Program-made: the position numbers and the translations under genes
Origin: Octopus sinensis
Taxonomy: Eukaryota
Direction of reading: 5' to 3'
DNA: 64,000 bases
Assembly (NCBI RefSeq): GCF_006345805.1
Contig: NW_021832228.1
Location: 124,001-188,000, forward strand
Notes under the pieces: generated by a model
What the model was told of the DNA's origin: nothing
The model's input: the letters and a program-made list of their open reading frames with translations, nothing else
The model's database searches: none
Part shown: positions 14,686-49,330 of the stretch, one piece after another
Position numbering within the stretch: position 1 is the first letter of the stretch
Layout of the letters: every line of letters begins with the position of its first letter

Positions 14686-14699
14686 GGGACGGAAAAAGG

Positions 14700-14960
14700 C
14701 CACACTCTCCATGGAAGAATTTTGGATATCAGCAATGTCGATGTTTGGAGTCGTTTTGTATGTTGTAGTTGGTGGATGCGAAAATGGTGGAGCAAGGACA
14801 TGTTCTTGTGATTTCGTTTAATGCGCAACAAGTGATGGGTGTGGTGGACAAATCGAATAAATTGGTGGAGGGAGATATGGTCGTGTGTGATGTATTAAAG
14901 AGAATAGGAACAAGCACGTTTGGGCTTTATGTAGGAATCAGAGTTCTCTCGATCCTATGA
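14700..14960 (+). pseudogene. Possible S1-domain (RRP5-like) fragment
   Basis: KLVEGDMVVCDVLK..TFGLYV weakly resembles S1 repeats. Confidence 0.25.
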
Positions 14961-19590: not shown

Positions 19591-19839
19591 GGCTGTGTAT
19601 GTTAATTTGTAGAGTTCAGTCGAGTCCTGCTACATTTGGGAGAATTAATTGGCAGTCCCCATTGGATACTCCATGTTTGTGTTTTGTAATATTGTTGTAG
19701 CTCATCTACTATTTGCTCAAGACTTTGACACCTTATTCTACTGTGTCGGTCTCGTGGTGGCTGCTTCCACCAATAAGTCGTTCATTGATTGCGTGATTCG
19801 CCGCCATTAAATTGTCTTAGTCGAATTTCACAGAGAAGA

Positions 19840-22490: not shown

Positions 22491-23499
22491 GTTAACTTTT
22501 AACTATATCTGTTTTTGTTATAAAAATAAAATTATTAAACTGTGGATAAATTTAAAGAAAACGCCGAAATTCCATTTTTGATAAATCTCTGTTTTGGGGG
22601 AATTTTTTTTAATAGGTGCTCAAATAGAGATCATATTGTAATTACAAATTTATAATATTGATTTGAACAAAAAATAGAATGTGACTATATTGTCAAGAAT
22701 AACAATCTTATATCCTATCATTATTTCAGAAATAGTTTTCTAATAAAATCGACTGTAAGCTCGATATTCTTTCTAAATATAGTCAACTGATTATTACAGG
22801 CACTTTCGCGATGCCATGGATCATGACAAAGCTTGTGCAGCACAGGAAACAATACGAGTAATTAGCTTATTCCATACGAGTAGTGCATCGAGATCGTCCC
22901 CGTCCTTCAGTTCTCTACCATCCTTCTTTAGGTCTCTATCCAGCGTACCCGGGAGAGTATTTCTTGGTCGCCCACGGAAACGATGGCCCCCAGCTTCGAA
23001 ATAGTTCTCCATAGCGGCGTTTGCCGGTGCATCCAAATCCATCCTTAGAATATGTCCAAACAGCCTCCATCTGCATTCAGTAATTTCGAGCGAGATTGGT
23101 TTGCTTGATGTTCTGGCATAAACTGTTCTGCCACTCAGTCTTGAATGCCACTTGGAGTACGTCGAAGGTGATCTCTATGGAAAGAGTCTAGGTTGTCATT
23201 GTCTGTAGCGGAAAGTCCCCAAGTTCCGGCGTTATATAGGAGTATTGGCTTCACTAATGAATTGTATAGTCGTATCCGTGTTTTTGTGCTGAGTCCTTTG
23301 CGTTTTAGCCAATTTTCCTTTAAGCTGCGTAGTGCACTGTCTGAAAATTCATCATGTGATATTTTTTGAGTTTATTCCTATAATCTGTTTATATATATTT
23401 TTTTTAAATATTTATTTTATTTGATTGCTCTTATTTGACTGGTTTGCAATATTTTGAATTGCCAAAGCAAAGGCATTCACAAAGGCATTGAAAGACCGG

Positions 23500-23885
23500 A
23501 GGGGTGTCTCTGCATTTCAAAGGCATTCACAAATTCTCCGAGGATGTAGTTCACTCGACCCAGCAATGTCACTGCAGACACAACCATCATGTGGAGGGGA
23601 CCATATATATGAGTCAATATCCTCACTCCCAGAACTGCCTCAACAACACAACTTGATTGACGTGTAGTTGGTCAGTCACAACGTCGACTGAATAGCCATA
23701 GTAAGTGGCCATCTCCTCTCTCACCAGTCCCCACAGACCATTGTAGTCCATGCTGGCCATAGTAGAGCATATTCGCGACTTGCCTTTATTCCCCATCCTT
23801 GCAGTCCCCGGGAAAAGCAAACAGTTCATAAAATATGAAATCGACTGGGCATTCACAGTGCCAATAACACGACGAAATACATGTT
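23500..23885 (-). pseudogene. CLUH: Clustered mitochondria protein (Clu) fragments inside the RTE copy
   Basis: HVFRRV..ISYFMNCL..LWGLVREEMATYY..VVLLRQF joined to IYGPLH..LLGRVNYILGEF (TPR), matching two non-adjacent Clu regions. Confidence 0.7.
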
Positions 23886-24209
23886 CTTTCTAGCCTAATG
23901 ATTGCAAGAACTTTCCGTATGCTATTTATAAGAATTACTGGCCTCAGATTCTCCACTTTTCCTTTAGCTTTGTTTGGTTTTGGACAGGGACCAGTATTCC
24001 TCGTCCAAGGGGTAAATGGTTGTTTGTTTTAAACATTCCGTTGAAGAGGTCCGCAATGAGGACATTTAGCTTTTCACTTCCATATTTGAGTAGCTCTGGT
24101 CCTAGTCCGTCTGGTCCTGGGCTTTTATTGTTTTTGAGTTTAGCACATGCTCTTTGCACTTCTGCAGGAGTTATTTCCAACTCCAATTTCCGGTATATCC
24201 ATCAATTCC

Positions 24210-25103
24210 TGTCACCGTTGAGTTATATGACTGGTTATCTGGTCTATAATCGAAATCCATTTATAATCGAGGTTTTTAGACAAACAGGTGGAGGACATCA
24301 TATATTTCAAGGATTGGTTTAGTCTTTCCACGTGCCCCTGCTATAGGCTCCTATGGGCTAAATTGCAGGTATGGTGTTCATAAGCTTTCTCGCCTGACAT
24401 TGGCAGCATGATTTGAAAACTGACATAACCTCACTTCTTAAAGATCCATAAACATTATCTTTAAGGAGAAAAAGCAGCTTGTCTCGACCTGGGTGTCCAT
24501 TTTTTAAATGGAGAATTTCAATAAACAGTTTCTTTTCTTCTACTTCCTCGAGACCGAAGGTACGTAATAAGATTCCGGAAGTTTTGAAGTAAACAATGTC
24601 ATTTTTGGAGTGCGACGATCTAAATAATGATGCCGTTCTCCTAAAATTTGACTCATTTTGATTCTGAATCACTTCATCTGGCATTTCACCATCCTTAAGA
24701 AATGCTATAATTTCCGACTTTTTCTGTAGGGTCAATAAAACGAACTTCATAACAAAAAATTATGTAAAGTGTTCGGAAAATTTCGATTTTCATATGAGGT
24801 CAGCCATTCTAAAAAATTAAAATTTTCTTTCTTTTTTAAATTAAAAAATTTAAAGTGATGATTTTTGTGATTATATACAGAAAGTTAAATTAATCAGAAA
24901 TTAATCGGCCAGCAAGCCGGATGGAACAGCTGTTCCCACGCACAACGGCCAACAGGATCCTTTGGATTGTGATTATATTAATTTAATTTTTTGATAATCT
25001 ATAATTTTGAGGTTTCGTTTTAGCGTAGCAACGGCACGGCGTTAACGGCAAAATCGATTTTGCGCGATCTTTCTCAGCCTGCAATCACTCTCAACCGGTG
25101 ACA
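24210..25103 (-). mobile_element. Ginger-like integrase DNA transposon, internally deleted
   Basis: Termini TGTCACCG(G)TTGAG..GTGACA; 5-bp TSD ATTCC (24205-24209, 25104-25108); ORF 24358-24750 with H-x4-H..C-x2-C zinc finger (HLKNGHPGRDK..CCQCQ), then QGHVERLNQSLK. Confidence 0.85.
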
Positions 25104-26719
25104 ATTCCTTTGCTGTTGGATCGAAACAGTTTCTCGAAGTTGCCGGAGATTAGTTCTGCTAATTCTGCGGAGTCTGCAATTCGTCTTCCATTTTTGTCAT
25201 TTATGATTAGTGGTTGTCTGTATTTACGTCCTCGTAATAATCTGATCGCCTCATAATACCTTCCATTGTCTTTCAAGGCTTCCATGGCCTTAATCTGTAT
25301 CTCAGCCTCCTTCCTTGACATATAGGAGACACACTTCTTGATCTTCTTCTTAATATTCGATCTTTCCCGACCAAGTTTTTCTTTGATGTGCTTGTCCTCC
25401 GTATTTAAATATTGTAGCCAAATAGATTTTTGTTTCTAAACAAGGAGCGATATCTTTGTTGTTCCATTTGGTGATGTGGTAACCATTTCTGTGTCCATGA
25501 GCTGTTTCTCCGCTGCTCCTCGTATTGATTCCTGGATTTGTCCCAGAGTTTGGGGAATGTTGATTTGTTTCCACACTTCCCAAATACGTATCAAGGCATT
25601 TCCTATTGTTATCTCCCATTTGTTGTATTGAGAGTCCATTTAAGTCGAATATTCTCTTCCTAAGGATATCCTGCCTTCCTTTGATATTTGTTTTGTTTTT
25701 GTTTAGATGTTTATTCAGTGATATTCTTGCAATGACCATTTTGTGGTCACTGTCAATGTTTGACCCACCATATGACCTTGCGTCAGTGAAAAGAGCTTTG
25801 TCTTTAGATCGACAGATTATATAATCTATCTGGTTGTAAATGTTTATAAATTCGCCGGATAAATTCTTCCTAAACCCCGTCCAAGTAGTTTTGTGTTTTG
25901 CATGAATGCAGTGTTGCAAATAAATAGACCGTTTGCCTGACAAAAATCGGCAAGTAATATTCCTGCCACGTTCCTTATTCCCCTCCCGTGATTTCCCATA
26001 AAGGTTTCATCCGTGTTTCTTCGTAATCCCACTTTGGCGTTAAGGTCGCCAGCAATGATAGTTATTGCCGAGTGAACAAGTTCAGAATAAGCTTCAGACA
26101 GGCAAGAGTAGAACAAGTCTATCTCAGTGGGGTCTTTTTTAATCCATCCACTGTGGGGTGCGTATACGTTTATAACGGATAGTAAGCTTTTAGATGGGCA
26201 AAGCTTATTCATGCTGATCTGAAATACACAAATCCGATCATTTATGCTATAACAACGATGAACCATTGGTTTCAATTCCTTCTTTATTACAAATCCTTGG
26301 CCAAAGTGTCTGCATTCACTGATAGCCCGACAGTTCCTCTTCTAATCCCCCATGCAGTTTTGTCTCCTGTAAACATCCAACAGAGACTTTGTATATTTTC
26401 AGATCTTCGCACAATGCTGTTCTTTTCCAAGATTTAGCGATTCCTCTGACATTAAACGAGAGTTGCGAAAAAAGTGTTAGTTTCCTGAGCTTTTTTGACT
26501 CCATCTTTAAAGAACCACGTCACAAGTTCAATCGAAAAAGTAAAAAAAAATTATTTCTGAATAATATTGGAAAATCTAAGAAAATTAAAATTGCGTTTGT
26601 ACGATTTAATTAAACCTTGATCTAGTGGTTGCAAAACAACGTTGCATCCCGTGGTAAAAATATTATTTAATTTTGGTTTAATTTAATTAAAACTGAATGT
26701 AAATGTTATAAAATTCACC

Positions 26720-27320
26720 TTATGTCTTAGTGAGGACAATTAAAGGAAGGCTTTGATCGAGTTGAAGGCGATTGGACTGCTTGATCTCCAAAAGAAAGTG
26801 GGGGAAGAAGTGTTGTGTGTGATGAAGAAGTCCTGTCGAATTGAGGGACCTGCCTTTGGTCGTCGAGTCAAGAGAGAAAGTCTCCGTGATTCCAGAATAA
26901 CAGAAAGAATAGAAAAACATGAAAAAATGGAATCCGAGAGACTAAGAAGACAACAATTTTAGTTAAAATGTAAAAATTCTGATTTTCAGGAATTTTTGGG
27001 GAGAATTCAGCAACATCAAAAGCAATTCCGTAAAAATATGCGAATTCGCGCAACCAAACTGGGCAAAGTGAGCAAGGCCGTGTTAAACCACCACCTGACG
27101 AATGAACGAGAGCAAAAGAAAGAAGAGGATCGAATTCGGCGGGAAAGAATGGGTCGATTGATGGGAAATAAATAATTTAACACGTTTTTAAAAAGAGGAT
27201 GAAGTGGAATACCGAAAGTTGATAGATCAAAAGAAGGACACCCGATTGAAATACTTGTTGGAACAAACGGACGAATATATAGGGAATATGGCCAAGTTAT
27301 TGCAGTCCCACATGTGTGAT
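26720..27320 (+). pseudogene. Brahma/SMARCA2/4 HSA-region fragment
   Basis: [78 protein letters not shown]. Confidence 0.88.
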
Positions 27321-27854
27321 TGGGGGAGGAAGGACAGGACTGTTATTCCATTGCTTAGAAAATAAAAATTAAATTAGTCTTGTATTAGTAACAACTTCTT
27401 GTGTGAAAATGACCAAAATGGAAGCCGAATGAATAAATTCGTCAAGAAATTAAGTGAACGAGTGATAGTTTTGTTGCAAGACTTTCCTCCACTTCTGGCC
27501 AAAGATTGGGGTTACCAGGATGATAAATTCAGGCGAACAAGTCAATCGGATTTTGGTGATTTTGGCAAAGAAAAAAAATTGCGTTTTTCTTTAAAAAATA
27601 AATCAAAATATCATAATCATTATTTTTTAAAACTATTGTTGTGTTAATAATTTTAGCAAAATTATTTATTAATCCGGGAAATCATTAAATTAAAAACATT
27701 TATTTTAAATTCTTTTTTCTAAATAGTTTCTCCAATTCTGATTCTGCGGAACCGGATGTCTACTTCAGCCACACTCGAAAATAAAAATTAGATGGAGCAG
27801 AGATACATGTCTTCGTTTGGGTCGTCTTCCTCTGGATTAATTAGTTTCCTAATA

Positions 27855-28499
27855 CAGTCGGACCTCGGTTTGAGCCACTTGGTGGCTCATAAACCGAGGT
27901 TGTATCATAAACCGAGGTTCGCTAATAATCCTAAATAACAGTACTTTAAGTAAAAAATAGTTCACAAGAAACAGATAGAAACAGTTCATAAGTTATACTT
28001 TTTTGAAATAATGCGTAATCTTTTCTCCAAAACGATTTTTATCCCGTAAATTAATCATTATTTTTTCCTTAGGGCGTAGAAATCATTTAATAATTTTGGA
28101 GAAAGTTTGCATATAATTTCCTTCATATTATTAATAAGAGTCAGTGGATCTATAATGTCTGTTGATTCAGGCCCATTATAAAAATTTATTTCGCTTTCAA
28201 GCAATTCTTCGACAAAGACTTTGTTCACCATTTCTGTCGATTTTTTATGAGAACTAGCATTATCCAACAACATTAATATTTTTCGGTTTTCAGAAAGCAT
28301 TCTGGTATTTAATTTAAAAACCCAGCTTTTAAAAATTTCAGTTGTCATCCACGTATTTTTAGAAGAAGAGTACATGACGTTAAAAACATCAGGATTGAAT
28401 TGTTTTAAGCACCAAAGGTTTCGATATTTGCCGATAATTAAAGGCTCCAGTTTCTCTCCAAGATAACTGCAGCATAGAAGCAGGCTAACCCTTTCCTTT
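27855..28499 (-). mobile_element. Tigger/pogo 3' part (DDE_1) with TIR
   Basis: TA|CAGTCGGACCTCG terminus; ERVSLLLCC..KLEPLIIGK, WMTTEIF..ILMLLDNASSH. Confidence 0.85.
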
Positions 28500-29799
28500 C
28501 GCCGAATTCGATCCTCTTCTTTCTTTTGCTCTCGTTCATTCGTCAGAAACGAGAATATTTAATATAAATACAACATTGATAGCAATATTGAATTAAATAC
28601 GAATTAAAAAAATCCACAACACAAAAAAATAATATTACGTGCCACGCGAATCCAACATTACTGCAGTTTTCTGAAATGGCCGTCCACAACAACAAAATAT
28701 GGAAAGCACTTTTCTGATTCTTTTCTTTTTCGTACATTTGGGAGAACAAAGAATGGGAGGTCAATCAAGACACAAACTGAGGTCGATGCGGAGCGAGGAT
28801 TCCAGATAGTTAGCACAGGGAAACTTGCCAGCAATGCTAATAGCGTTGATGATAGCCTTCTGGGGAGAATGTTTGAGGGCGGATAAAAAGCAGTCCTCCA
28901 GTTGCCACTCTATCAAGTCCAGAGTTTCACTTTGGCTTCCTTCTGGTTGTTAAGGGGCCCGTTTTAAAGTCTTACATTTCAATTCAATATATCTTGTTTA
29001 TAAACGTAATTTATCTTTCTACACAAAAAAATCATTCACATTTCAACAAATTCAGTCATCTCGGTGTCCGGATCGTTGTTAGAAAAACTCTGCAGATCCA
29101 GACATTTCCTGACATTACTCACCAAAAAGAATTGGACTGCATCTTTTCAAAATTTACACAAACAGAAAAAATGAAAAAAAAATAAATTTCACAAAATTAG
29201 ACATAAACTTTAATTTTTAATCAAAAATACGCACTTTTGGACTAAAGCAAGAAAATTCAATAATTTATCAAAAATACTAAAAAAATATAAATATAGTGAA
29301 GATATTTTACAAGTACAAAAAATAAATAAACGACAAGATTAAAAAAATTAAGTATTGATGAAAAGAACAAAAAGACAAATTATTATATTTATTATACATG
29401 ATTTTGCACAACTAAATTAATCAACTCAAATATATATTTTCTATTCATATCTGATAATGATTACAACACAACAAAGATCAACAAATCGTTGTGACCTCGG
29501 TCATATCAGGACTTCTTCCTTTCTCATACAAATCGGGACATTTGTAAATAAAAAATTCCATTTTAGATCATTTCAGTTTCAGTAATAATCACATCCAGCT
29601 TTAATGACACATTTATTCTACATGGAAGAGAATATATTCAGTTCTGTGGAGCAACGTCGCTGATTTTCAGTATCCTGCACTTTCTATTTTATTTTCTCAA
29701 AATAAATACAAAATTCGGACCTTCTCGTCAAAGATTTATCGAAATGATAATATATTTTGGATTTACAATTATATATTTTATAACCATAGTCATTTAGGA

Positions 29800-31947
29800 C
29801 AGTGTTTCTCAACCTTTTTTTCCCTGAGGCCCATTTTCAGGGTCATATAAAATCTCAGGCCCATTGCCTTTAATAAAACTTTGATTAACAAAAAAGTATT
29901 TTTATTAACATAAAAAATCTTATTAAAATGTCAATGACTACACTGCTCTTGATGTCTATCTATCAATTTGTCAAGTTGAATTTCCAGATCTTGGTTCAAC
30001 CTCAAACGTAAGTCTCCTCTCTTCTCAATCTGCAATTGATTGCGTTTTTTTGTGAGTAAATCGTTTGTTGCAGAAAATCCTATCTCAACCAACCAAGTGG
30101 TGGGAAAGCCAAGTACAAACGGAACAACTTTTTCAAAGAGTAATGGATGAATCGATTCTACTTTCATCCATCCATATAAGCCATCCCTTTCAATATTTTT
30201 CATTAATACTTTGTTCTCCTTCAGTTCAAGAAGTTCTCCAGCAATAATAGGATCAATGTCTTTTTCACTTAATACGTCAAAATGTGCTATATCTATAATC
30301 CAACTAGGCGGATTCATTTCGATGATATCTTTAAATCTTCTAGTCATATCTTCTTTCAAGCATTTCAAGTGGTCAGTGCAGCTTGCGATTACTTCTGAGC
30401 TCGGAGCAGTTTTGGCAAAATTACAAAAATAAGCAAATTCATTTTTTTGAAGATGCATCTTCCAGAGACATAACTTGTTCAAAAAAGAGCGTACTTTCTC
30501 AGCACTATCTATCAGATTAGCATTTCGCCCTTGCAGTGTCATGTTCAGTTGGTTGACATGTGCGAATAAGTCAGCCAGGTAAAAAATCCTTGCTTTTGTA
30601 TCGTTGTTATTTATCACTGAAAACAAAGTCTCAGCTTTATCTTTCTGCTTCTTGCTACAAGCTTGTGTTTTCATGTCATGAACAAAAATAAGAACCATAT
30701 CCCACATTTCAGCAAGACGAACTAGGGAATTTCCTTTGGAAAGCCATCTCACTTCAGTGTGCATGAGGAGTCTCTGGTGGTCCTCATGTTCACATAAATG
30801 TTGAAATAGGCGGTCATGCAAAGCATTGGCTTTGACAAAATTCACTGTTGAAACAGCGACTTTCAATGCATGTTCCATGTCATCATTGAGAGATTTAGCA
30901 CAAAGATGTTCTCGATGGATGATGCAATGAATTGCCAATATATGAGGGGCAACTTTTTTTAATTTAGCTACAAAGCCATTCTGTTTGCCGGTCATAGCGC
31001 TGGCACCGTCTGTTGCAATCTGCAACAGATTTGACAGAGGGATCCCATTATCGTACAGATAGTCGTAAACAGCCGCATATATAGTGTCGCTTCGTGTGTC
31101 AATCAACTTTTTTATAAATAACATTTCTTCATGAATTGCCATTGCATCAATATATCGGACATAAGTAAGTAATAAGGCAGAATTGTTGATTGTTGTCTCA
31201 TGTCTCACACAAGCTGTTTCTCGAGGTTTTCTGCCATTTCAATTTGCCTTCTCTTCACTGTGTCATTAGACAATGGGATTTTTTGTAGAATGTTGGCAGC
31301 CTGTTCTCCTAGCAGTTCTTTAGCACAGATCAACATTGCTGGCTTCACCAGACGTTCTGCAATTGTATGTGGCTTCCCCACCTTAGCAACCAGTTCACTC
31401 ACTGCATAACTGACTTTTAGTGTCTTGTTATTATGCTCATTTGCTTTTTTTAAGCAGAATTCTAAAGTTTTTGGAGCATTCTTTTGGCGTAACTCCACTT
31501 TCTTCCTGAAATAGCTGCGCTCCTTTCCAACAGAAGCAGGATGCTTCAACTGTTGATGGGCGAACAATTTTGATTTCTTCATGGAAACATTTGTCATTAC
31601 TAAGCCACAGTCCACACATTCAGGCCTCTTAGAATCAGCACTTGATGGGATGAAGCCTAGTAATAAAAAATCAGTCTGGTATTTGCGTGTAGTCTTCCTT
31701 TTTTCCTTGTGTACTTTTGACATGAACTATACAATCAGGCCTATAATATTTAAATTTAAATATGACAATATCATTAAATTAAAAACAAATCAAATCAATT
31801 TGAAAATAATAACGAATAAAGATTTATTAGTATTAGTATTAACATATTTTCTTTGAGGCCCACTCCAGGCCCAATTAAATCTTCAGGCCCATTTCAAAAT
31901 TTCTCAGGCCCACAAGTGGGCCTGGGGCCCAACGTTGAGAAACACTG
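29800..31947 (-). mobile_element. Near-complete hAT (Buster / ZBED5-SCAND3-like) transposon
   Basis: TIRs CAGTGTTTCTCAAC; 8-bp TSD ATTTAGGA (29792-29799, 31948-31955); ORFs 31205-31723 and 29931-31208 with ATDGASAM, HCIIHRE, HTEVRWLSKG, TTWLVEIGFS; AGGCCC subterminal repeats. Confidence 0.95.
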
Positions 31948-32984
31948 ATTTAGGAGCTGATAGTGAGCCTTGTACTACAATATTGGCAGAGGGATAATCT
32001 TTGTTACAGCAGTATTAATGTTTTTATAATTTTTTAGTTATTCTGTTGTTTTGGTACAATACTCAATGCTTATTGTGTTTATATGTCGTATGTCGACGTA
32101 TATGTATAAAATAATTGACTTTTTAACGTTTTTGGTCTTTTTTATTTTGATTTAATTAAAATATTCAAACATAGATATTAATAGATAATCTTGTTACTAC
32201 AATCAATGTGGTGTAACCACCGATTAGAATAACAATTGGTTATTTTTATTAAAAATGTTGAAATATTTAAACACTTTGATATAAGATTATTTAAGCAGTT
32301 TAAAAAAATTATTCAACTAGGCCAAGGGCAGTCTCTAGGTGATTCTGGTGATCTTCTGAGAAAGTAAAAACAGCCACAAAACTGTTTCATCAAAACATTT
32401 CAGGGCACGAGGGAATTTTAAATTGAACAGCTTTTTGGGAACATGACTGGACTCGACACAAAGTTGACCTCATCCTCAGGGAAAGGCAGAGACTCGGAAT
32501 TGTCCTGTCGTGTATAAGACAAGACAAACAAGTGATTCCATGTCGTATAGTGTGAATAAATGCTCCCATATCTCGGCTGGGGAGAGTTGATGGGGCATAT
32601 TTAGTTGTACTTTCTGCAGGCAAATATCATTCGAAAATGTTTATTAAGTCCTTTTATTAAGGATATGTAATTACCTACTGGCTTGGTTCTCTTTAGTGCT
32701 GAGAATAAATATATTTCGTTCTTCCGGTCAAGTAATGTCCTTTCCACAATGACACACAAAGAATAACTTATTTAAATAATAATTTATTATTTTTTATACA
32801 TAACGCCAATCAAATCAAACTCGCCTCACTAAACGCAGCCGCATAACCACACGTAGGGGACTGGTTAGATTCCGTCCCACTATCCTCAGCCGGTTTACTT
32901 TTGGATGATGAGTCAGTTCGTCTCCGTACCTGTTTAGGACAAAATCTCTTTAAACCATTGGTTGATAATTAATGTGTTAATAGA

Positions 32985-33710
32985 TTAATCGGCCTGACGG
33001 ATCGCCAAACTGTTCCCCATGAGAACGGCAATCGAAAACCGCTGGAAAAACCAGTCCACCTCGCATGGAGATTTTTTCCGCAAGCTTGCGTAGGAAGTTT
33101 TCCGTCTTTAGACCAAGAGAACCCGACGTTTCTACCGCTATCGGGATCACGAAAAACTCATTCGTAAGGGCGGAACATTTGGTTAGGTTTAAATCTTCAG
33201 CAGCAGATTTAGCTTCCAGAGGAAGTTAGCTGTGAAGCAGAAAATGTATCCAAATAGGTTGCGTCCCATACGATACCTTTTCCAATTTTAAAAGGAAATA
33301 AAGTCATCCGTCAGGACGTTTCCCGTCATGGTTTGAGGACCAAAGGAAATCACGCCGAGTTAAGGGTGCTCCATATGATCTCACCTCTTTAAATAATAGC
33401 AATTAAAAAAAGTAAAAAAGCCTGCCGGACAGACACAAAAATTAGCATATTTTAAGGTAATTGGACCAATTTCGGCTATTTTGATAGATAGATAAGGGTT
33501 TATTTTGCAAAGGGATATCAGACATAAAAGAAATTAAGGGCCAGTAATGGCCTTACACGCAGGGTCGTCCGGGGCTATTTTCTTCTCTTCTCTAGAAACT
33601 TTTAAACTTGGGTTTCAACAAGCTCGCCAATCATAGGAAAGACTTCGCGCCAGCTCGGTATTTTCTCTCTTAGATTTACGCCGAATGCCACCTTGAGCGC
33701 TAATCTCGTA
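32985..33710 (-). mobile_element. Degraded CRE-like fragments
   Basis: DGKRPDG, WDAT, IAVLMGN, RPLLAL remnants. Confidence 0.6.
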
Positions 33711-33773
33711 TTAATGCCTGGTCGTATTAATGGACTTGTTTCATTAGTTAAATCTAAAAATAATAAGATAATA

Positions 33774-34496
33774 TGTCGCATGCACAACGCGCACTACGCC
33801 CCGAGCGCACATTATCGATTAGTCATATTGTAATTTTTATAAATTTTTTCGAAATTATTGAATATAATGACACAAATGGCACTTTAAAAATATTATAATA
33901 TATTTATTAATTTGTTAATATCTTTTTTTCATCAAATTTTAATTAAATATTACGCACGCTATATACTATGGATTGTTCACGTTTGGTTTTCCAAAACAAA
34001 AGAAGTTATATAAGAAATGTGACCGGTTGAATACGAGCCCAGGTTGATTAGGGTCAGGGTTAGGGGTTTGGGTTAGGGTCAGGGGTTAGCGTCAGTTTTA
34101 GGGTCAGGGATTAGGGTTAGGGTCTGTTTTCTTTAGTGGCTTTTTATGATGAATATGTTTATAAATAACGTTGAAATCATTTATAGTTAGAGTTAAAGTT
34201 AAGGTTAGAGTTAAAGTTGTTACAAACTTGCCAAAAAATTTGATGTAAATTATAATTTGCTAATGTTGCAATTTATAATATCAAAAATAAAAATAATTCA
34301 CATTATAATTTGCTAATGTTGTAAATAATTTTACTATTTTAAAGCAAACATGGTTCAAATATAAAACATCATTTTTTCAAAAATTTAAAGTTCAATCATT
34401 AGTTCGGAACGTTTGCCTTTATTTTAATTGGCCTTTTGAATTATTAGCGAATCAATAATGTGCGCTCAGGGCGTAGGGCGCGTTGTGCATGTGACA
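33774..34496. mobile_element. Non-autonomous TGTC-terminated MITE with internal TTAGGG-like array
   Basis: About 42-bp TIR TGTC(G/A)CATGCACAACGCGC..GAGCGCACATTAT; 5-bp TSD TAATA (33769-33773, 34497-34501). Confidence 0.9.
34040..34125 (+). repeat. Degenerate telomere-like (TTAGGG/TCAGGG)n array
   Basis: TTAGGGTCAGGGTTAGGGGTTTGGGTTAGGGTCAGGGG... Confidence 0.9.
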
Positions 34497-35489
34497 TAAT
34501 ATCATCACATTGTTTTTTGCATCGAGAAGTATTGGTTGTAAAAACATTACCTATGAATTTAAAATCTGTCTTGAATGATATTATCCGAATGATTAACAAT
34601 ATAAAAAGTCGAACCAAAAAATCTCACATTTTTACTACTATTTATGATGAAATGGGGTCAAACTTTACAAATTTGTTACTTCATACCGAAATTCGATGGC
34701 TATCAAGGGGTAGAGCATTAACGAGTGTTTTTTAATTAAAGGACGAAATGTATGAGTTTTTTAAATTGGAAGGGCATTCTGAATTTGTTGAAAAATTTCA
34801 GAATCCAATTTGGTCTTTAAAACTTGCGTATTTATCTGACATTTTACAAATATTAAACGAGGTTAATGCAAGTATGCAAGGACGTTCTGAGACTATATTA
34901 TTGTCGACGGACAAATTAAATTCTTTGAAAATGAAAATCAGTTTTTGGAGAAAAAGGGTTTTAGATGGCGATTATAATATGTTTCATAGTACATATAGTT
35001 AATTTAATAATTTTGGAAGACAAAATGGATACTTATTTTCCAGACTTAGAAATTAAAAATTCGATTGGGTTATTAGTTTTTTAATATATTTATATACGAA
35101 ATTTTTTTATTGTCCCTGAATCAAAAAACTTGTCTATTAAAGAAAATGAAGAACTTATTGCGCTATTTAATCATCGATCCTTATGATTAAAAATGACGGA
35201 GTTAGACATTGGAGAATTCTGGATATATATTCGAAACATATATCCCAGTTTATCAAAACAAGCACTGACCATAATTTTACAGTTTTCAACGACCTATTTA
35301 TGCGAAGCAGATTTTTCTAAGCTGCATAATATGAAACATAACAAACGCGAAAGTTTGAGAAACATTGATGCTGAAATGCGGGTGGCTCTGTCAACCATTC
35401 GACCTGATATTGATGATATATGCAACAACAATAATAATTAAGATTTCATTTTCATAGTAATTTTGTGGAAATTAGAGCACCTATTTAAT

Positions 35490-36325
35490 TAGTACCAGTG
35501 GATAAGATGGAATGGCATTTCCCACGCAAGATGGCTATTGATATGCGTTGGAAAAGCCATGTTCGTTCCCGATGATCATTTCTCCTTCTGCTTGCCAGGT
35601 CCCCCAGTTTAATAAGGAATTTTTTAGTTCTGAGACCGAGGACTTCCGACGTCTCCACTGCGATCAGGACAAAGAGATGACTTTAAGATAATGCACTGTA
35701 TTTCTTGATTTTTAGCGTTTCGGCCAGGTTAGCTGCGGAGCCCGGCTCTGCGGCTGACGTAAAGATGTTTCCGGCTGAGAAGGTGTCCGTGCAAGTTGCG
35801 TCCCAGATGAGCGACTTGCCATTTTCGAAAGGGAAAGTCGTTAGGCCGTCAGGACGTTTACCATCCACACGAATCAGGCCGACCGGTTCCAACTGTGATG
35901 GGAATCCGGCATTTTCGAGGGTTCGATCAACTATGTCGTTCAGGGCAGTGTGTCAGGGAAAGAATTTTCATTATTAATAAAAATTTGGGCATAAAATTAC
36001 CAATTTTTGTACTTTTAAAACTTTTTTTGTTAGAAAATTATATTTAAAATTAATCAAATTAGGTCAAGAGAAAAATCGTCATTGGCAGATAGCCAGAGTA
36101 TTGCCTCTGACTATAGCTATAGATATTCGTTCGATTAAATACCGGTGCTCACATGGGTTGCCGGTAACCCTTTCGATTAATGAGGCAATGCGCTGGAGTA
36201 GGGTCCGAGTAGAAGACCCCTGTATTCCTGACATCTCAACAGCCAGGGGGACAAACACTCTGCCATTCCCAATTCCAGCGTATTTCTCTGCTTTTCTCTT
36301 CTCAGCCCGTTCAGGAAAGGGATAA
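35490..36325 (-). mobile_element. Two CRE-like RLE 3' fragments
   Basis: EPVGLIRVDGKRPDG..WDATCTDT..KIKKY; FQRISIAILRGN; FVPLAVEMSG. Confidence 0.8.
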
Positions 36326-36334
36326 TTTTATGCT

Positions 36335-37222
36335 TCTTATTTCTGATGCTGCAAGGTATATGATGGCGGGTATTGTTTTAATGAATTGAGCGATTATTAA
36401 AATACAGTTAGAAAAGGCAGAAGGATTGTTTAAGACTACGCAGGTTAGGGCGCTTTCCCAGCCTCACGGATTGCGAATCTGGTTGCATTGTTTTAATTCA
36501 TTTACGATTTAGCCGGGAAAGTTTTAAAAAATCTATATCCTAATCTTTTTTATGTCAATTGCGTCGCCTATATTTTACATAATTGTTCAATGGAGGTCAG
36601 AAAATCTTATCCAAAAGTCGATAATGTGATAGCTAGCGTACAAGCTTCTATTAGGAAGAACAAAAAGCGACAATTGTTGTTTTCAGAAATTGGAATTCCA
36701 CCAAAAGTCGTATTTACTAGATTGGGTACCTGGTTAAAAGCTGCATCTCATTATTCAAAAAATTTAATCAAATTAATATTATCGAGTTAATTGAGAACGA
36801 GGGAATTTTAGTAACCTCTACGAAGAGTGCATTGAAAAATGAGAGATTAGTACAAAGTTTATGTGCAATTTCGCATTGCTATTCACATGTTACAGGTTGT
36901 TCTTAGATTTATAGAAAAAATATTAAAATTTGAGAGTAACGAATGCACAATAGACTACGCATATTCGACTCTTAGTGTAATGGAATTTGGGAAAGATGAA
37001 ATAGCGGTTAAAAATATTTGGAGAAGAGAATTTCGGAAATAAGTTTTGTCTTTATTGTCTCGTATAAAAGTATAAACTAAAAACTTTACAAGTTAAAGTT
37101 GAGAAAAAATAAAGTTAATTTTTTTTAATTTTAAAGTTAAAAATTTTGGTTTATAGGTTAATAAAGTTAACTTTTTAAGGTTAAATTTTTCTAATTTTAA
37201 GGTTAAAAAATGTTCGCCCTAG
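36335..37222 (+). mobile_element. CGGBP1-like / hAT-related transposase remnant
   Basis: ISDAARYM, NCVAYILHNC, PPKVVFTRLGTWLKAA; ends ..TTCGCCCTA; homologous to 41290-42372. Confidence 0.7.
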
Positions 37223-37799
37223 TTATAACACATACTAGCAGACCTACTCTAATATTTGTTTTGTCTTTATCTCCTTGATTGTAGAACTCTTTAAGATTGC
37301 TTAAATTGTCAAATAAACAAAAGTTTTGTTCAGAAAGCATTGTGTTATAGTTGACTTCGAAAATCACAGCAGGATGCTTTTTTTACTTTCAACTTTTTCT
37401 TCTAAATATCGTCTCAGTTCTCCAGATTCCATGCTGTAAATAGCAATTAAGTCTAACTTTTTAAAGAATTTTTCTTCACAATTAAATCAATAGATTGAAA
37501 ATTGCTGCCTTGAATCAAAAATGATGATGAGAAGTGAAAACTGACCAGCAGATTGACGATTGTATAATGACTCCATCTGACCCTAGCTCCCTTCAAGCCC
37601 CGCTGAAACAACTTTGCGCAAAAACATTTCGAAAGTAGTAACACGAGTTTGAAAAATGCTGTAAAGTTATGATTAAATACTGGATTCGGGTTGTGCCTAG
37701 AGATTCTAATCAAGGACCATTTGCAGCGCTTTTTCCAGATGAGCAAATTCAGTAGGAGAAGCTTCTGGAAGGTTTCTTAATTTGCTAATTTCACGTTCG

Positions 37800-38372
37800 G
37801 TAGTGGTGACATCATCCCCAAAACTTAAAGAGTGAACATCAAGAGCTGCAAGCTTTTTGTGAATTACTTGTATGCTACGCCTTCTTTTAGCTTGAGAGGT
37901 AGCTCTTGTCTTTTCCTGACACGAGTATGACTAGACCTTTTTATTGCCGAATCTTGAGAAGAGCGTGATTTCAAAATCGCAAAGATTTTTCTACGACAAA
38001 ACTTTGGGAGGAAAATGCAAATTTCTTACCATTTTTTGACTCGAAAATGCTTAGAGCTTTACGTAGAGTTTTTGCTAGAGGCTCCAGTAGCTTTCCATCT
38101 TAACGTTCTTTAAGCTCTCCTTGAAGCGTGATCAAAGCGTCAAAGTAAATCAAGTAAAAATGGAGAAGCGTGTTACTTTGATGATTCGATTAAAAAAGCC
38201 TTAGGAGAACAGAGTTGTAATGCTGGAAGATAAAGACTATTCGATTAGTAAATCACTCGTGCATGAAATGAACCGGATCTACTCTATTGAAGGAGGAAGA
38301 GATCTTATTGAGCGGTTTCAGAGTGAAGCTCTTCTTAAGTTTGATGCTTATGATCAAAAGAGAAAGAAGTGA
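37800..38372 (+). pseudogene. Decayed intronless ORF convergent with and overlapping surE, possibly bacterial hypothetical protein
   Basis: 3' frame ..MLEDKDYSISKSLVHEMNRIYSIEGGRDLIERFQSEALLKFDAYDQKRKK* ends near 38372, overlapping the surE stop at 38354; 5' limit unclear. Confidence 0.35.
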
Positions 38373-39108
38373 TCATCGAAAGTTTTTTTCTTTTGATCTA
38401 TGTGGCAGTAGCCGGTGAGCTCCCCCACATATAAAGGAACGGCTGGAATGTAGCATTCATCAAGCAAGGCAATATCACTGTTCAAATGTTCATCATAAAG
38501 GTGATCGTCCCCGCCAAAATAGAATTCTGCATGTTCTTCCGCATGCTTCTCTTGCTGTGAGATTCCAAGCCATGAGCAGAAATTTTGACAAGCCATTTTA
38601 CACCTTTTAAATTGATCGGGTGGGACACTGGGAAAGTTCACATTTAATATTGACTCTTCAGGTATGGGATGGTCTCAAAGGTAGTGAATGCTTTTTAAAA
38701 TTTAAGGTTGCACATGAGGGAAGTTTTGTGTTTTATCACACATATAAGAAAAAAATACCTTGAATACCGCTCATTATTGCTTCAGTAATTGTTTCAACAG
38801 TTCCATCATATAAAACGTTGCGTCCTGCGTTAAATCCAAGCTTGATGCTGATATAACGAAATCGGGATATTCTTTAAGCAAACGATGAAGCACAAATTTA
38901 ACAAAGTCCACAGGTTTCCCATCAATCATGTACAAGTATTGGTGTAAAAATCAACGGACTTTGTTTGAAGAGGGGAATCAGACGTTATACAAACGCCCGC
39001 ACCTGATTGTTCAGACAAGAAAGGAGCAACTGCAAGGTTGCATATTTCAAAAAGCATTTTAGAGTGAATTCCATTGTTATTTGTAAGTAAAAAATAGGTT
39101 TTTACATG
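38354..39108 (-). pseudogene. surE: Bacterial-type 5'/3'-nucleotidase SurE, frameshifted and intronless
   Basis: Across frames: FLLTNNNGIH (LLTNDDGI), VAP..EQSGAG..IT, IDGKPVDFVK, PDFVIS, GFNAGRNVLYDGTV, HPIPEESILNVNFP, SDIALLDECYIPAVPL. Confidence 0.8.
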
Positions 39109-39959
39109 ATGACAGTGTGATATTGTACAGAACCATAGAACCAACTCAGACTGCCAGGCATTCCAATAAAAATCCAGGAATGATTGGCGAAACTGTGCTA
39201 TTAAATAGAGGACAAGACGGTTTTGGCATTAGTAGTCGGAACCTCCTTTGACTCGATCAGGAATCTTCATACATAAGTTACTTAGTTTGTATTATCATTC
39301 ATTACGTATTTTTTATTATCATTTCTGATAACCTCAGATAGTTTACGCCGATTTTAATCAACTTCCATATGATAACAACAGTATACGGCGGCGGTTGGCT
39401 GAACAAAGTAAATATTTCCGACCTTTTTTATAATTTACAATTGAGACCTTTACGTATGCAATTAAATTATACACATCGTAATAGTATGACTTGATGCTTA
39501 AAAACAATTATTCAATAAACGCATGTGAAACAGATTTTGACAAAATATTTTTAACGAATTTTCAACTAGATTTAATGAAATAGATAACTACGTGTTATAT
39601 ATGTCCAAAATTCTTCATTTCGTTGCTAAATATTTTGATGGTTTGATCATCGTCCAGGAAAATAACCGCCACTGTGGGTGCAAAGTCAAGCTTTGTATAA
39701 GCGATAAGGAATTTCTGTGCTGGAGAGCTAATATCTACGATCAGAAAACTAGAATTCTTTTTTCATTCATGCGAGCTTTGTCAACAATCATAAGATTTAC
39801 TTTTCCACAAAAAAGGAGCTTAATGAAACTGTTCATTTACTGATAAAAAAAAGTTTGATTTTTAAAAGTTGATTTGATTCTTTATTTAATATCTATGAAT
39901 TTATAGAAATTCAGAATGGAGCAAATTTTAGATTCATATCTTAGAATATTTAGATTCAT

Positions 39960-40748
39960 ACCTATCCGACATTCCTAACCCTAAAATGGAAGACTCGATC
40001 ATTCTCGCCTACGCAGAAGACCTACTCATTGGATCAAGTGATCAAGACCTCTTGAAAGCTTCCAAAAGAGCACAAGATCTCTTATTTCAAATTCGTCCAC
40101 TACCCTATTTACGTCAGACAAAAGACTCGGAAGACTCACTATTGATCTCTTTCTGGACAACGAAAAGATCCCATTCACGAAGAACCCTAATATCCTTGGA
40201 ATCACTTTTGACACCCACAAGAACAAATGTATGGAAACAATTACTGCCAATTTAGAGAAGGCCATCGGATCCAGTCAGAGAAAGATTGGGCTAATCAAAT
40301 CAATATTTGGCGGACTAAAGAAACCGTTCCCGGCTCTCAGCCTCTCTACAAACAATTCATCAAACCGACATAAGAAAATAATCTCTCACGGTCAAACCGC
40401 CTTAAAATTGAGACTACACTATGCCGAGTCGCGGGTAGCATAATGAAAATTTTCAATTTGAACAATATTATTCCAAGTCTGCTTGACCACCTAATTAAGA
40501 AAGATGGAAAGAGCTTCTTGGCCATTCAATAAGACCAACTGTCATAAGACCATCATATGTCAATTAGCAAACAGAAGCACATCACCCCAATCCAATTCCT
40601 TACAAAAACTGTCACCGTCCGTTCCCCACTTGCGTTGGGTCCAGAGTTCAAAATCGGGAAAAGCTGGGAAAAATCTTCAGGATCGTTGGAATCACCTAAT
40701 TAATTACTCTAATTAACGGTTGGTGTTTCTTGGGTTAAATAAAAAAAT
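39960..40748 (+). mobile_element. Degraded Jockey/I-like LINE 3' RT fragment
   Basis: LAYAEDL, NPNILGITFD; ends ..RIVGIT* followed by an A tail; related to 51213-52000. Confidence 0.65.
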
Positions 40749-40769
40749 GTTTAGAATCACTCAAATAGA

Positions 40770-41160
40770 TAGTTAAATTGCGGTTGGCAACTACTTCAGA
40801 AGGCTCTGCGGCAAAGTCGCTGCCAGAAGGGTTGCAATGAGAATCGGGATCGAGGTCTCACCCACGCAAGTCGGTGTTAGTGTACGTGGCGGCTTGTCCA
40901 TGGGCAAACGTGTCACTACTGATTTCATCGCTGTGAAGCTGGATGTCACCAACGCTTTCAAAAACGTGCGCCGCGATGCTATTTTGGAAAGATGTTCTCA
41001 AAGAGCACCGGAAATAATCCATCTTGTTCGGAGAGCAGTCTCGTATATGGGAATGAGATCATCCGTTCGCAGACTGACGTGCCACAGGGTGACTTCTCTC
41101 TGCGATAACAATCGATGAGGCAGCTCGACTTGCTGTCTCTCCTTTCAATCTTCGGTAATG
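40770..41160 (+). mobile_element. CRE-like RT fragment
   Basis: IAVGNYFRRL, QVGVSV, KLDVTNAF. Confidence 0.75.
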
Positions 41161-41289
41161 AAAAAATAATTAAATTCTATTGTTTATACGTCGAGATTTA
41201 TACATTGACTAAAATTGTAGATTAGCCATTATATTGTAAAATATGCGATATTTGTGTAACATTCCATAAAAATGGTTTGTAGAAAAACA

Positions 41290-42372
41290 CAAATTGACGC
41301 AAAAACATAAATCGCATATGAACGAGCCTAAAAAGAGCATTCAAAGGTTTTTTCCCACTACTGTTGTTACTAATGATTTTTCGCTCAATCTAACTAAAGC
41401 ATTTGTTTCAGCAAATATTCCATTATATAAATTACGGAATCCTGCCTTAATAATTTTTACCTTCAGAATCAAAATGTCGAAACAATGTCAAAATTTTGGC
41501 AGAAAGACGTGTTAGTGAGATTATCCAATTGTTAATTAATGAAAGGATTTTCTTAATTGTTGATGAGTCTGATGCCGGTAAAGATAAATTTGTCAATATT
41601 CTTATTGATACACAATTGTGGTTTAAGGATAAAACTAAGTTACCCTACAGTGGATAACTTAATTGCCTCCATTACAGGACTTGTTTCCAAAAATAATAGT
41701 CGAAGGCAACTATTTTCTGAAATAGGACTACCTCCAGAACCTATTGTTACTAGATGGGGAAGCTGGCTTCGAGCAACCAAGTACTACGTGGAACATTTTC
41801 CCAGAGTGTTGGAAATATGCAATTCGTAAAAAGGAGAATCCCTATTGATTCGGAGGGCAAAATAATCAATAAACCATGAAGGACTTGTTAATCATTTAAA
41901 AGAAATATGGAATCAGTATTCTCCACTTGCAGATGTTCTTCCTGAAATTGAGTCCACAAACTTTTCAATCGAGAAGGCTATCAATTTTTTGAAAATACTC
42001 GATCTGAAAGAAGATACCTGCGAAATAAAAGAATATATTGATAAAAGAATGAATAAGAATGAAATTATGAAAATTGTTAACGGAGAAGAAAATTTTTCGC
42101 CTATGGAAAAGTTGCGACTACTCCAATGTCAGGCAACTACATGTTCTGTGGAGCGTTCATTTTCAATTCTCCATAAAATTTAGGCAAAAGATCGGAATTT
42201 TAAACCGGAGAACCTTAAATTTTATATGATTCTTTATAACTCCTGATTTAAAAAAAATTCTCGGCTCTTTTTAGGTCAACTTTTTGGTCAACTTTCGTTT
42301 TTTGTGGTTCAATTTAGATGACTTTTAGAGGTCAATTTTTGATATTTTTGGGTCAACTTTGTGGTTGCCCTA
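41290..42372 (+). mobile_element. CGGBP1-like / hAT-related transposase remnant
   Basis: AFVSANIPLYKL, IVDESD, PPEPIVTRWGSWL, TTCSVERSFS; GGTCAAC subterminal repeats; ends TTGCCCTA. Confidence 0.78.
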
Positions 42373-42993
42373 TTTACAACCTACAAAAAACTACGATAGA
42401 TTGTAAATCAAAACTTCCAGAATATCCTTTTAAAAATATTATTGAACTTTTAACCTTTTAATGCTCAGTGATTTGTTTTTCTTTAAATAATAATTTTAAT
42501 AAAATATAGTTTCTAAATATCTTTAAGAATTTATAGAATTTCCAATTTACACGTTTTTTGAGTAACTCTTAATTTTTCCTACAAGATCCTCCCTGTCACA
42601 AAATTCAGCAGCGGATTCAACTAGGAGTTGAGACTCCGGGCACTTTTTGGATTAACATTATTGTCCCGGTGATGTTCTTTGTTAAAGCATCCTATTTTAA
42701 TCGTAAAATATAATTTGTTGATATTCAGTGGAAGAAATATTTTTTATTGACTATGATGAAAAATTCATAATCCAATCATTATTCAGGAGGAACAAGAGAA
42801 GCGTTGCACAATATTTTGCGACAAAAAAGACATTTGGCTTTCGATAAAAGCTTTTCACCAAACTTTGAAAATCCCTATAACAGATATTCGCCCAAGTATT
42901 TTCGTTTCTGTATTATTAATTGTAATTTTTTATACTTTCTTTAGAGTTATTTCGATTAAACGTTTTGATATTCATTAATTCAGATATAATAAA

Positions 42994-43675
42994 TGTCACC
43001 GTCTTGAAGGGACCCCCAGGGTTGAACGGAAAATTAAGAATTAAAAAGGCAAAAGTAAATGGCAGGCATAAATTATATGTAAAAAATAGTATTTTAATTA
43101 TTTTTATAATAATTCTAATGTTTAATTTATTATTTTAGAATGGCTTGTCTAAAATTTTATTTTTACATATCAAATTATGACATGCAATGCGACATTGTGA
43201 CCTTACTCATGAGGGTTAGGGGTAGGGTAGGGTTAGGGTAGGGTTAGGGGCAGGATTAGGGGCAGGATTAGGGGCAGGATTAGGGCTAGGTTTAGGGTAG
43301 GGTTAGGGTCAGGATTAGGGTTAGGTTTAGGGTAGGGTTAGGATTAGGGTTAGGCAACATCTATGAAGTGGTGGAAATGGGTATAAGTGGGTTTACGATT
43401 GGTTACTTTACTTTGTTTTTAACTATATATAATTGGCTTTGTAAATTGTAATGACATTCATTTGAAATATTTATTATATTATTTATAATTAGTCTATTTA
43501 TTTTTCTGAAATTAAGGCAGTACTAATGTAATCATAATTTTACTAATATAGAAATATTTTGAGGTCATGCAAGTATCTCTGGAATCCTCTTTTGGGTATT
43601 TCAATTATTAAGTGTATGAAATATCTAATTAGGGTAGGGTCCCTTCAAACTTGGGGTCGTTCGATGCCTGTGACA
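42994..43675. mobile_element. Non-autonomous TGTCAC-terminated MITE with internal TTAGGG-like array
   Basis: Left TGTCAC..TTGAAGGGACCC and right GGGTCCCTTCAA..GTGACA; 5-bp TSD ATAAA (42989-42993, 43676-43680). Confidence 0.8.
43212..43355 (+). repeat. Degenerate telomere-like (TTAGGG/TAGGG/CAGGA)n array
   Basis: About 140 bp GGGTTAGGGGTAGGGTAGGGTTAGGG... Confidence 0.92.
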
Positions 43676-43779
43676 ATAAATATACTAAACAAATTCTAAA
43701 AAATAACTATTTTCCGTTTTTTAATAATAGAAAATCAAATTGAAATCAAAAAAATCAAAAAATAATTCACATTTTTTTA

Positions 43780-49200: not shown

Positions 49201-49330
49201 GCTGTACCAGAGGATATCGATCGCAATCTTGCGAGGTAACCCGCTTGCAATCCGAGGTGCAGCCACTGCTGACTCTTAATTAGCTATTTTGGTTAAGTTT
49301 TTTTTCGATTGATTATTTCCATTAAAATTT
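46217..49330 (+). mobile_element. Near full-length CRE-like non-LTR retrotransposon (PHD + RT + CCHC + RLE), two frameshifts
   Basis: N-terminal C4HC3 PHD (CFSC..CASC..FHLSC..WKCPSC); IRPIAVG, KLDVRNAFN, GVQQGDPLGP, WYLDD; CKCG..HPLSC, RH, KRPDG, WDVT, E..K..KY; pyrimidine-rich 5' UTR. Confidence 0.92.

Follow-up and report, generated by a model that had tools for sequence, protein, structure and literature searches.

Introduction

According to the sections of PMC2836005 and PMC10045372 that deal with them, transposons of the Ginger2/Tdd group have TGTNR ends and are flanked by target site duplications (TSDs) of 4 or 5 bp. For this group, PMC2836005 describes terminal inverted repeats (TIRs), AT-rich targets, a single HHCC-DDE integrase without reverse transcriptase (RT), non-autonomous derivatives (Ginger2-1N1_NV), a 5-bp TSD in TDD-4/5 and, for animal Ginger2, 4-bp TSDs in RTATAY sites; Ginger2 is said there to lack the YPYY motif. 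Ginger1 has TGTNR termini, an N-terminal YPYY motif, a transposase gene that may have introns, 4-bp CCGG/CCGT TSDs, and GPY/F and OTU/Ulp1 domains. In this study, we analysed a stretch of 64,000 nucleotides labelled Octopus sinensis (contig NW_021832228.1, positions 124,001 to 188,000; hereafter the window), in which three elements, E1, E2 and E3 (Table 1), have TGTCRC...GYGACA ends and 5-bp TSDs. E1 contains parts of an integrase gene, and E2 and E3 each contain a TTAGGG-like array. We believe that they are three small dead cut-and-paste transposons of the integrase-using, Ginger-like kind. We give a slight preference to the reading that all three are non-autonomous derivatives of one Ginger-like lineage and that the array is a resident, hitchhiking minisatellite.

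Results and Discussion

Ends and target site duplications

A preliminary description of this DNA had reported the three elements, and our scan confirmed their coordinates, termini and duplications. The window contains 23 left-type TGTCRC and 21 right-type GYGACA hexamers, and exactly three pairs within 12 kb, namely E1, E2 and E3, have identical 5-bp flanks. In 300 block-wise dinucleotide shuffles, pairs up to 1.5 kb apart were absent from 299 and numbered one in a single shuffle; for pairs up to 12 kb, 279 shuffles had none, 21 had one and none had two. This null is a favourable one, because the searched pattern was taken from the finding itself. When duplication lengths of 2 to 9 bp were tried, 5 bp alone suited all three elements, E2 being also compatible with 2 bp. 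All six ends are TGTCA or TGTCG, and the targets are AT-rich in two of the three elements. Set against a TIR length of about 40 bp or more, E2 has 47 bp at 91% identity, E3 has about 37 bp, imperfect (5/2000 random stretches scored equally), and E1 has just 13/14 nt, which is at chance level when taken alone (219/2000).

The word "family" used in the preliminary description overstates the likeness of the elements, which share little besides ends and array. In BLASTN comparisons of E1, E2 and E3, no homology was clear except at the array, at the ends and in a single 18/20 patch that E1 shares with E3. The window contains neither a second full copy of any of them nor an empty-site paralogue of the E2 and E3 flanks. 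The termini folded no better than shuffles, and Rfam gave 0 matches in 20000-50000, with no tRNA genes.

Integrase of E1 and its relatives

The HHCC zinc domain of E1 was recognized as Pfam Integrase_H2C2 (E 5.1e-07), and the N-terminal piece is 44% identical to residues 1-137 of P0001 (XP_029653938.1), the best relative of E1. When the E1 open reading frame (ORF) was run by full HMMER against 1.84 billion representatives, 42 relatives were recovered at E<=0.001; a word-based homolog search gave 0 matches among 239 candidates. The relatives are stand-alone HHCC-DDE integrases of 400-480 aa. The rve core, which is deleted in E1, was present in 17/17 longer relatives scanned, together with Integrase_H2C2 in 14 of them, and RT or RNase H was found in none. 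Among 30 relatives looked up, those with names were KRBA2-like models labelled Octopus sinensis or were microsporidian (Dictyocoela, Nosema, Cucumispora, Nematocida, Enteropsectra and Vairimorpha), bar one JGI "hypothetical protein"; the rest were nameless. The named relatives are annotated as KRBA2/SCAND3-like, a clade placed within Ginger2 in PMC3575427, and Ginger elements have been noted in microsporidia (PMC5751038). Because the named relatives are nearly all microsporidian apart from the Octopus-labelled models, horizontal transfer of the integrase between parasites is possible. Among structural neighbours in the Atlas, the KRBA2 family reached a template modelling (TM) score of 0.69, with Gypsy- and Polinton-like clusters scoring too; together with the database names, these neighbours incline towards Ginger2. 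An N-terminal tree of the fetched relatives gave no resolution around E1. In a contig scan, 16 loci from bacterial records were 24-38% identical; no telomere-like array was found at any of them, nor, among the pairs shown, a TIR pair flanked by TSDs. One more fragment of this integrase class, more distantly related and reaching from HHCC to the first aspartate, lies at 59200-59560 on the minus strand (hidden Markov model (HMM) scores 44 and 27), with no TGTC ends near it.

Compared with Ginger1, the three elements are alike in their TGTNR termini and, by eye, in a YPYY-like N-terminal motif of E1, but their TSDs are the 5-bp ATTCC, TAATA and ATAAA; OTU/Ulp1 Pfam domains occur in 0/17 relatives and no GPY/F is seen in the alignment. 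With Ginger2/Tdd, as described in the sections cited above, they share the termini, the TIRs, the AT-rich targets (here in two of three), TSDs of 5 bp as in TDD-4/5, and the existence of non-autonomous derivatives, and the relatives of E1 share the single HHCC-DDE integrase without RT and the KRBA2/SCAND3-like annotation. On the other hand, the TSDs are of 5 bp and not the 4 bp of animal Ginger2, and the TIRs at best reach the lower end of the range reported in those sections. Of YPYY and GPY/F, both of which Ginger2/Tdd should lack, GPY/F is absent, but a Y/F-P...F...YY-like pattern is apparently visible ahead of the zinc finger in E1 and its relatives, as judged by eye. Telomere-like arrays, present in E2 and E3, are unmentioned for Ginger2/Tdd in the same sections. 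E1 is Ginger-like via its relatives, departs from Ginger1 in TSD and C-terminal domains, and suits Ginger2/Tdd except for the YPYY-like motif. The Ginger-like class proposed earlier for E1 is borne out by H2C2, TGTNR ends, the 5-bp TSD and rve relatives free of RT and RNase H. This would be a Ginger-like lineage of mixed features, with a 5-bp TSD in an apparent animal host and a YPYY-like motif on a Ginger2-like core.

E1 had also been taken as an integrase-bearing member. Both HHCC and ERLNQ are indeed present, but their frames differ, and the D..D core that should separate them has been deleted. Of P0001, E1 retains counterparts of residues 1-137 and 238-274; about 100 codons, including both catalytic aspartates (145 and 206 of P0001), are deleted, and glutamate 242 alone remains. 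Another relative, P0054, extends 156 residues beyond YNSTV, and those 156 codons are missing from E1, whose left terminus starts at the YNSTV codons, i.e., within the integrase coding sequence. This left end is a deletion junction or a cryptic end, which is why the "TIR" of E1 is so short. Because the catalytic aspartates are deleted, the frame has a premature stop and a frameshift, and the 3' part is lost, E1 cannot supply integrase. Judged by its sequence, E1 is a dead relic and not the driver, and a role of E1 as the source of integrase finds no support.

E3 and the integrase lineage

In E3, an ATG located 194 nt from the left end is followed by eight codons, and the peptide matches the N-terminus of P0001 in 9/9 residues. 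This is the longest exact match outside E1 among 61 fetched proteins, the next longest being 7 aa, and 3.2e-4 such matches are expected by chance over all proteins and both strands. The Met of P0001 lies 13 residues ahead of the conserved IIxYL motif, and in 27 of the 30 relatives that could be anchored (47 tried) it lies 12-15 residues ahead. The DNA around the ATG points in the same direction. The ATG-anchored E1-E3 alignment of 147 nt, for which one length was tried, beat 1495/1500 GC-matched stretches and 1488/1500 block shuffles, and a local alignment of the two elements was equalled by 17/936 and 92/1000 controls. A 13-mer common to both lies 64 nt ahead of the ATG in E1 and 54 nt ahead of it in E3, and the 5' end of E1 and the left end of E3 have 8 terminal bases in common (p 0.03 beyond base 6). 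Since these nine codons of E3 reproduce the N-terminus of P0001 without a change and stop where the array begins, we believe that E3 is, with good probability, an internal-deletion derivative of the integrase lineage of E1. For E3, the proposed link between integrase and miniature inverted-repeat transposable element (MITE) finds support in this N-terminal match and in the 5' colinearity with E1, and E3 appears to catch the birth junction of a MITE at the integrase start.

Several results weigh against this derivation. The first nine residues of P0001 are atypical of the family N-terminus, and 492/1340 random ATG peptides score equally; in the same scoring, E1 ranks 1/1340 and 20/30 true members fall in the top 6%, with 5/30 true members about as poor as the nine residues of P0001. 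The P0001 N-terminus with 12 residues at offset 13 is equalled by 77/1167. The E1-E3 signal comes mostly from the one 13-mer, the remainder being unremarkable (236/3000 score equally), an equally long match occurs in 75/3000 AT-rich stretches, and the minus strand of E2 also has an A/T-rich 13-mer match. The family HMM finds nothing in E2 or E3, where the best overlapping domains rank 70 and 119 of 1532. Finally, a possible GT donor lies where the match of E3 to P0001 stops, so that a gene model that is spliced or chimeric could account for the match.

Three further candidates were set aside. A resumption of the integrase core or C-terminus after the array of E3 was ruled out, since the family HMM ranks those frames at background. 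An alternative frame starting 5 nt earlier was no better than random for the family N-terminus (1047/1340), and one hand-anchored alignment at 3/3000 was discounted because it had been chosen after inspection.

TTAGGG-like arrays

The central TTAGGG-like array announced for both elements of about 700 bp is present in each, at 274 and 373 nt from the ends of E2 and at 218 and 321 nt from those of E3. T[TC]AGG is densely clustered at two places in the window, one within E3 and one within E2 (12 and 9 per 100 nt; next 4), and the chance that both clusters fall in elements is about 0.1% under random placement. Among nine units tried, TTAGGG was the best fit for both arrays, with about 14% edits per base. 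TCAGG, GCAGG and TAGGG variants are mixed at periods of 11-13 bp (11-12 bp in the higher-order structure of E3), and perfect runs do not exceed about two units. The second, A-rich array in E2 is possibly a decayed version of the first. In G4Hunter, the two arrays gave the top peaks of the window, 1.96 and 2.08 (next 1.76). They are predicted to be G-quadruplex-prone, and as a prediction the earlier statement on this point stands.

In the operational definition of short interstitial telomeric sequences (ITS), at least 4 units with less than 1 mismatch per unit are required; with 11 edits over the 76 nt of the E2 array and 20 over the 143 nt of the E3 array, or 0.87 and 0.84 per unit, both lie within this limit. 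In PMC7215372, short ITS are single insertions at repaired breaks in mammals. The arrays here resemble them in being internal TTAGGG tracts (12-24 units, less than one change per unit) with possible junction microhomology, but lie inside transposons and have a higher-order structure of 11-13 bp. An association of a DNA transposon with telomeric repeats is also seen in the telomere-bearing elements (TBE) of Oxytricha. Those are Tc1/mariner elements with the telomeric repeats at their tips, whereas the present elements go with a Ginger-like integrase and have degenerate repeats in their interior. Repbase appears to contain entries for non-autonomous DNA elements of other animals that bear comparable G-rich arrays. 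A literature search on telomere-like arrays in MITEs or other non-autonomous DNA transposons listed no paper describing them in Ginger elements, with most subscription journals, Repbase and Dfam outside its coverage, so that this is no evidence of absence. If such MITEs are abundant, transposition would be a route to interstitial telomere-like, G-quadruplex-prone DNA besides break repair.

Proposed origin of the elements and their arrays

We propose that autonomous members of the lineage encode one HHCC-DDE integrase of 400-480 aa. Acting in trans from an intact copy outside the window, the integrase would bind the element ends, cut at the terminal CA and join them to a 5-bp staggered target cut, leaving the 5-bp duplication; this course follows integrase chemistry, and the ends and duplications are those observed. 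E1 is a dead copy that has undergone two internal deletions. E3, to judge by the peptide identity, would be a MITE from a sister autonomous family of the P0001 type, deleted from about codon 10 on, and E2 is probably a more distant cousin, with a weaker case. The array would be a G-rich minisatellite resident in the parent elements, lying either in an intron close to codon 10 or downstream of the ORF; E1 has lost its entire 3' part, in which such an array could sit. Residues 10-11 of P0001 (R-V) are compatible with AGG GTT, and the deletion in E3 was probably resolved at an AGGGTT microhomology between these codons and the array, as deduced from the protein. The arrays would then hitchhike with each transposition, scattering degenerate, G-quadruplex-prone, interstitial telomere-like tracts as a by-product. 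Such dispersal holds only if the arrays predate insertion.

In simulations, nine codons stay unchanged in 9.7% of cases at 10% divergence and in 2.9% at 15%. With nine intact codons in E3 beside an array that is about 14% degenerate, the degeneracy probably predates E3. A resident minisatellite is favoured by this, by the similar place of the array in two MITEs and by the second, decayed array in E2. Two further points count against the proposed origin. No autonomous element or second copy was seen in the window, and the divergence argument is only moderate, as it assumes a faithful telomerase.

The transposon origin may also be kept with the array as filler at a break, a course that we consider unlikely. 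Here, abortive gap repair after excision would leave an end at the AGGGTT-like R-V codons, which would be extended by telomerase or by copying of a subtelomeric variant tract and rejoined to the 3' end, and the MITE would then have amplified the insertion. The coding match of E3 stops exactly at the array, the R-V residues are compatible with one telomeric unit, TTAGGG was the best of nine units for both arrays, and in mammals short ITS have been documented as insertions at double-strand breaks, with microhomology in register (PMC7215372). AGG GTT would serve equally as deletion microhomology or as telomerase seed. However, the filler requires either that E2 and E3 each gained an array independently at a similar place or that a single old event took place, after which the TIRs diverged, and fresh repeats should be near perfect, which these are not, while the coding stub of E3 is unchanged.

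Position of E2

The place of E2 in the lineage is less certain, its link to the integrase being weak. Its TIRs are unlike those of E1 and E3 beyond base 6 (p 0.04-0.97 over 8 E2 pairs), and exact-peptide and family-HMM searches found no integrase coding remnant in it. In the alignment of E1 with E2, 1136/1500 controls score equally. The 5' arms of E2 and E3 are marginally alike, and this only when they are co-oriented (11/1500 GC-matched stretches and 111/1500 block shuffles). No similarity is seen between the 3' arms (322/1500), the 3' arms and four control orientations together spanning 138-1461/1500. When the parts before and after the array were aligned over four lengths, none of the scores differed significantly from those of block shuffles (246-971/1500). 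A 30-mer of E2 directly ahead of its array is the best non-self match in the window to the 5' end of E1, and 20 matching bases were reached by 0/200 shuffles and 0/188 random stretches. Another end gave a 20/30 background match; the 30-mer may be a nested end or chance. On common termini and weak similarity, E2 cannot be called a demonstrated member of the integrase system, as had been claimed for it.

A reading in which E2, E3 or both have nothing to do with the integrase is accordingly to be considered. They would be other MITEs with 5-bp TSDs or solo-LTR-like elements (LTR, long terminal repeat) that have just the generic TG..CA ends in common, and P0001 would have borrowed its first exon from an E3 copy upstream of an integrase. 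For E2 alone, we hold this evenly balanced; as a whole, it seems to us rather improbable. The atypical N-terminus of P0001, the possible GT donor at the end of the match and the want of clear DNA homology between E2 and E1 agree with it, and LTR retrotransposons likewise have TG..CA ends and TSDs of 3-6 bp (PMC10045372). Yet a borrowed exon would have to place its Met at the modal offset of the family by chance, and the E1-E3 colinearity around the same ATG is independent of any gene model. A solo LTR should have TG..CA ends, no more than short inverted ends and a TSD of 4-6 bp. The TIRs of 47 bp in E2 and about 37 bp in E3 exceed the short inverted ends of LTRs, and E1 contains the 5' part of an integrase between its ends.

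Host and possible function of the arrays

Dicyemids are parasites of cephalopods. In the window, a frameshifted IMPDH gene has GT-AG intervals of intron-like size between coding segments that follow in order (Table 1), and animal introns as short as 24-27 bp have been reported only from myxobolids and Dicyema (PMC13644364). Because of these introns and the close integrase relatives labelled Octopus, we infer that a dicyemid-like host is plausible. Chromatin elimination and circle formation have been reported for dicyemids (PMC6543705). Some of the many frameshifts in the window may stem from errors of assembly.

The boldest reading holds that the integrase gene was replaced at a telomere-like codon seed by telomeric repeats, that this happened in several MITE families, and that the host uses the seeds for breakage and healing. 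It presumes a tiny-intron parasite, maybe eliminating somatic DNA, with a Ginger-like lineage shared with microsporidia, and we regard it as very improbable. Dicyemid elimination keeps it alive without supporting it. A chromosome-breakage role, if true, would matter much more than the rest, and it has no support so far. The arrays contain, in E2 and E3, 1 and 6 TAGGGTT half-sites and 1 and 2 POT1-type TTAGGGTTAG 10-mers. A function of the arrays, in which telomere proteins would bind to them or breakage and healing would start from them, e.g., in developmental DNA elimination, would agree with the G4Hunter peaks, the operational short-ITS definition (PMC7215372), a dicyemid- or myxobolid-like host as suggested by the IMPDH introns (PMC13644364), chromatin elimination in dicyemids (PMC6543705) and the use of degenerate ITS tracts as repair templates in telomerase mutants of C. 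elegans (PMC9071541), but the perfect sites are few, E2 and E3 are intact with continuous flanks, and dicyemid elimination is tied to circular DNA with telomeres not mentioned in the passages of PMC6736024 and PMC6543705, which makes such a function highly doubtful.

Table 1. Coordinates of E1, E2, E3 and associated features in the window
Feature	Position	Strand	Remarks
E1	24210-25103	-	894 bp; TSD ATTCC at 24205-24209 and 25104-25108; 5' end = 25103
E1 integrase, N-terminal piece	24358..24750	-	ATG at 24750; YPYY-like motif; HHCC; premature stop 24360-24358
E1 integrase, second piece	24213..24340	-	ERLNQ ... YNSTV with frameshift; 89% identity to P0054 over 37 aa
Long interspersed element (LINE) 3' stub in E1 5' region (presumably restriction-like-endonuclease type)	24865..24978	-	12-bp direct repeats 24865-24876, 24967-24978
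Degenerate LINE hosting E1 (presumably RTE type)	22830..26311	-	flanks colinear with copy at 3201-5910
E2	33774-34496	+	723 bp; TSD TAATA on both sides (33769..34501 including TSDs); TIR 33774-33820, 34450-34496
E2 30-mer like E1 5' terminus	34018..34047	+	21/30; directly ahead of array
E2 TTAGGG/TCAGGG array	34048..34123	+	~12 units; 11 edits from perfect TTAGGG; 10 G-tracts of at least 3
Second, A-rich 6-bp array in E2, TTAAAG/TTAGAG	34181..34218	+	
E3	42994-43675	+	682 bp; TSD ATAAA on both sides (42989..43680 including TSDs); TIR 42994-43030, 43640-43675
13-mer common to E1 and E3	24802..24814 (-); 43133-43145		only two occurrences in the window
E3 ATG + 8 codons	43187..43213	+	identical to P0001 residues 1-9; ends at array start
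E3 TTAGGG-like array	43212..43354	+	~24 units; 20 edits from perfect TTAGGG; 17 G-tracts of at least 3
IMPDH gene, frameshifted	13171-14760	-	coding segments in order, separated by GT-AG intervals (24, 26 and 27 bp)

Surroundings of E1 and other features of the window

E1 inserted into a LINE that we take to be of the RTE type, and the LINE stub arrived in E1 later. Compared with the copy at 3201-5910, residues 8-67 of the host LINE end at 25124 and residues 87-152 start at 24177. In an empty-site frame check of the host LINE the flanks lined up colinearly, but frameshifts occur elsewhere in this LINE and its gap is about 10 nt off the reference. The stub inside E1, presumably from the restriction-like-endonuclease clade, consists of 102 bp plus a 12-bp duplication and resembles LINE C-terminal stubs elsewhere in the window. 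Restriction-like-endonuclease LINE 3' stubs were observed at 5965-6039, 7689-7772 (both among those resembled), 16267, 22409, 33044, 35550, 36135 and 49208, and a longer PHD-RT element lies at 46321-49283.

A 390-aa open frame at 9682-10854 on the minus strand contains the fusion and central domains of a rhabdovirus glycoprotein (Pfam E 6.6e-08 and 9.9e-08); it is an endogenous viral element, notable in such a host. A fragment of SPT5 lies at 19176-19700 on the plus strand, with KOW5 (E 3.6e-20) and C-terminal repeats, and a homolog search with it gave no match among 248 candidates. Inverted copies of about 400 bp, 74-77% alike, occur at 1560-1975 (+) and 8613-8964 (-), with a head that is tRNA-like by eye and an AATA tail; they are probably a short interspersed element (SINE), and ARAGORN finds no tRNA gene in it.

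A perfect 47-bp inverted duplication joins 27095-27141 and 28500-28546. The latter copy falls where a pogo-like DDE_1 frame (28058-28558) starts, the former in a fragment that we take to resemble the HSA region of SNF2/Brahma, and a capture of a gene piece is possible. Fragments of hAT-like elements were found at 2340-2642, 29931-31726, 56852-57337 and 61037-61866; Pfam recognized a BED finger and a dimerisation domain, and the remaining fragments were identified by eye. Subterminal repeats lie at 1329-1387 and 57490-57548.

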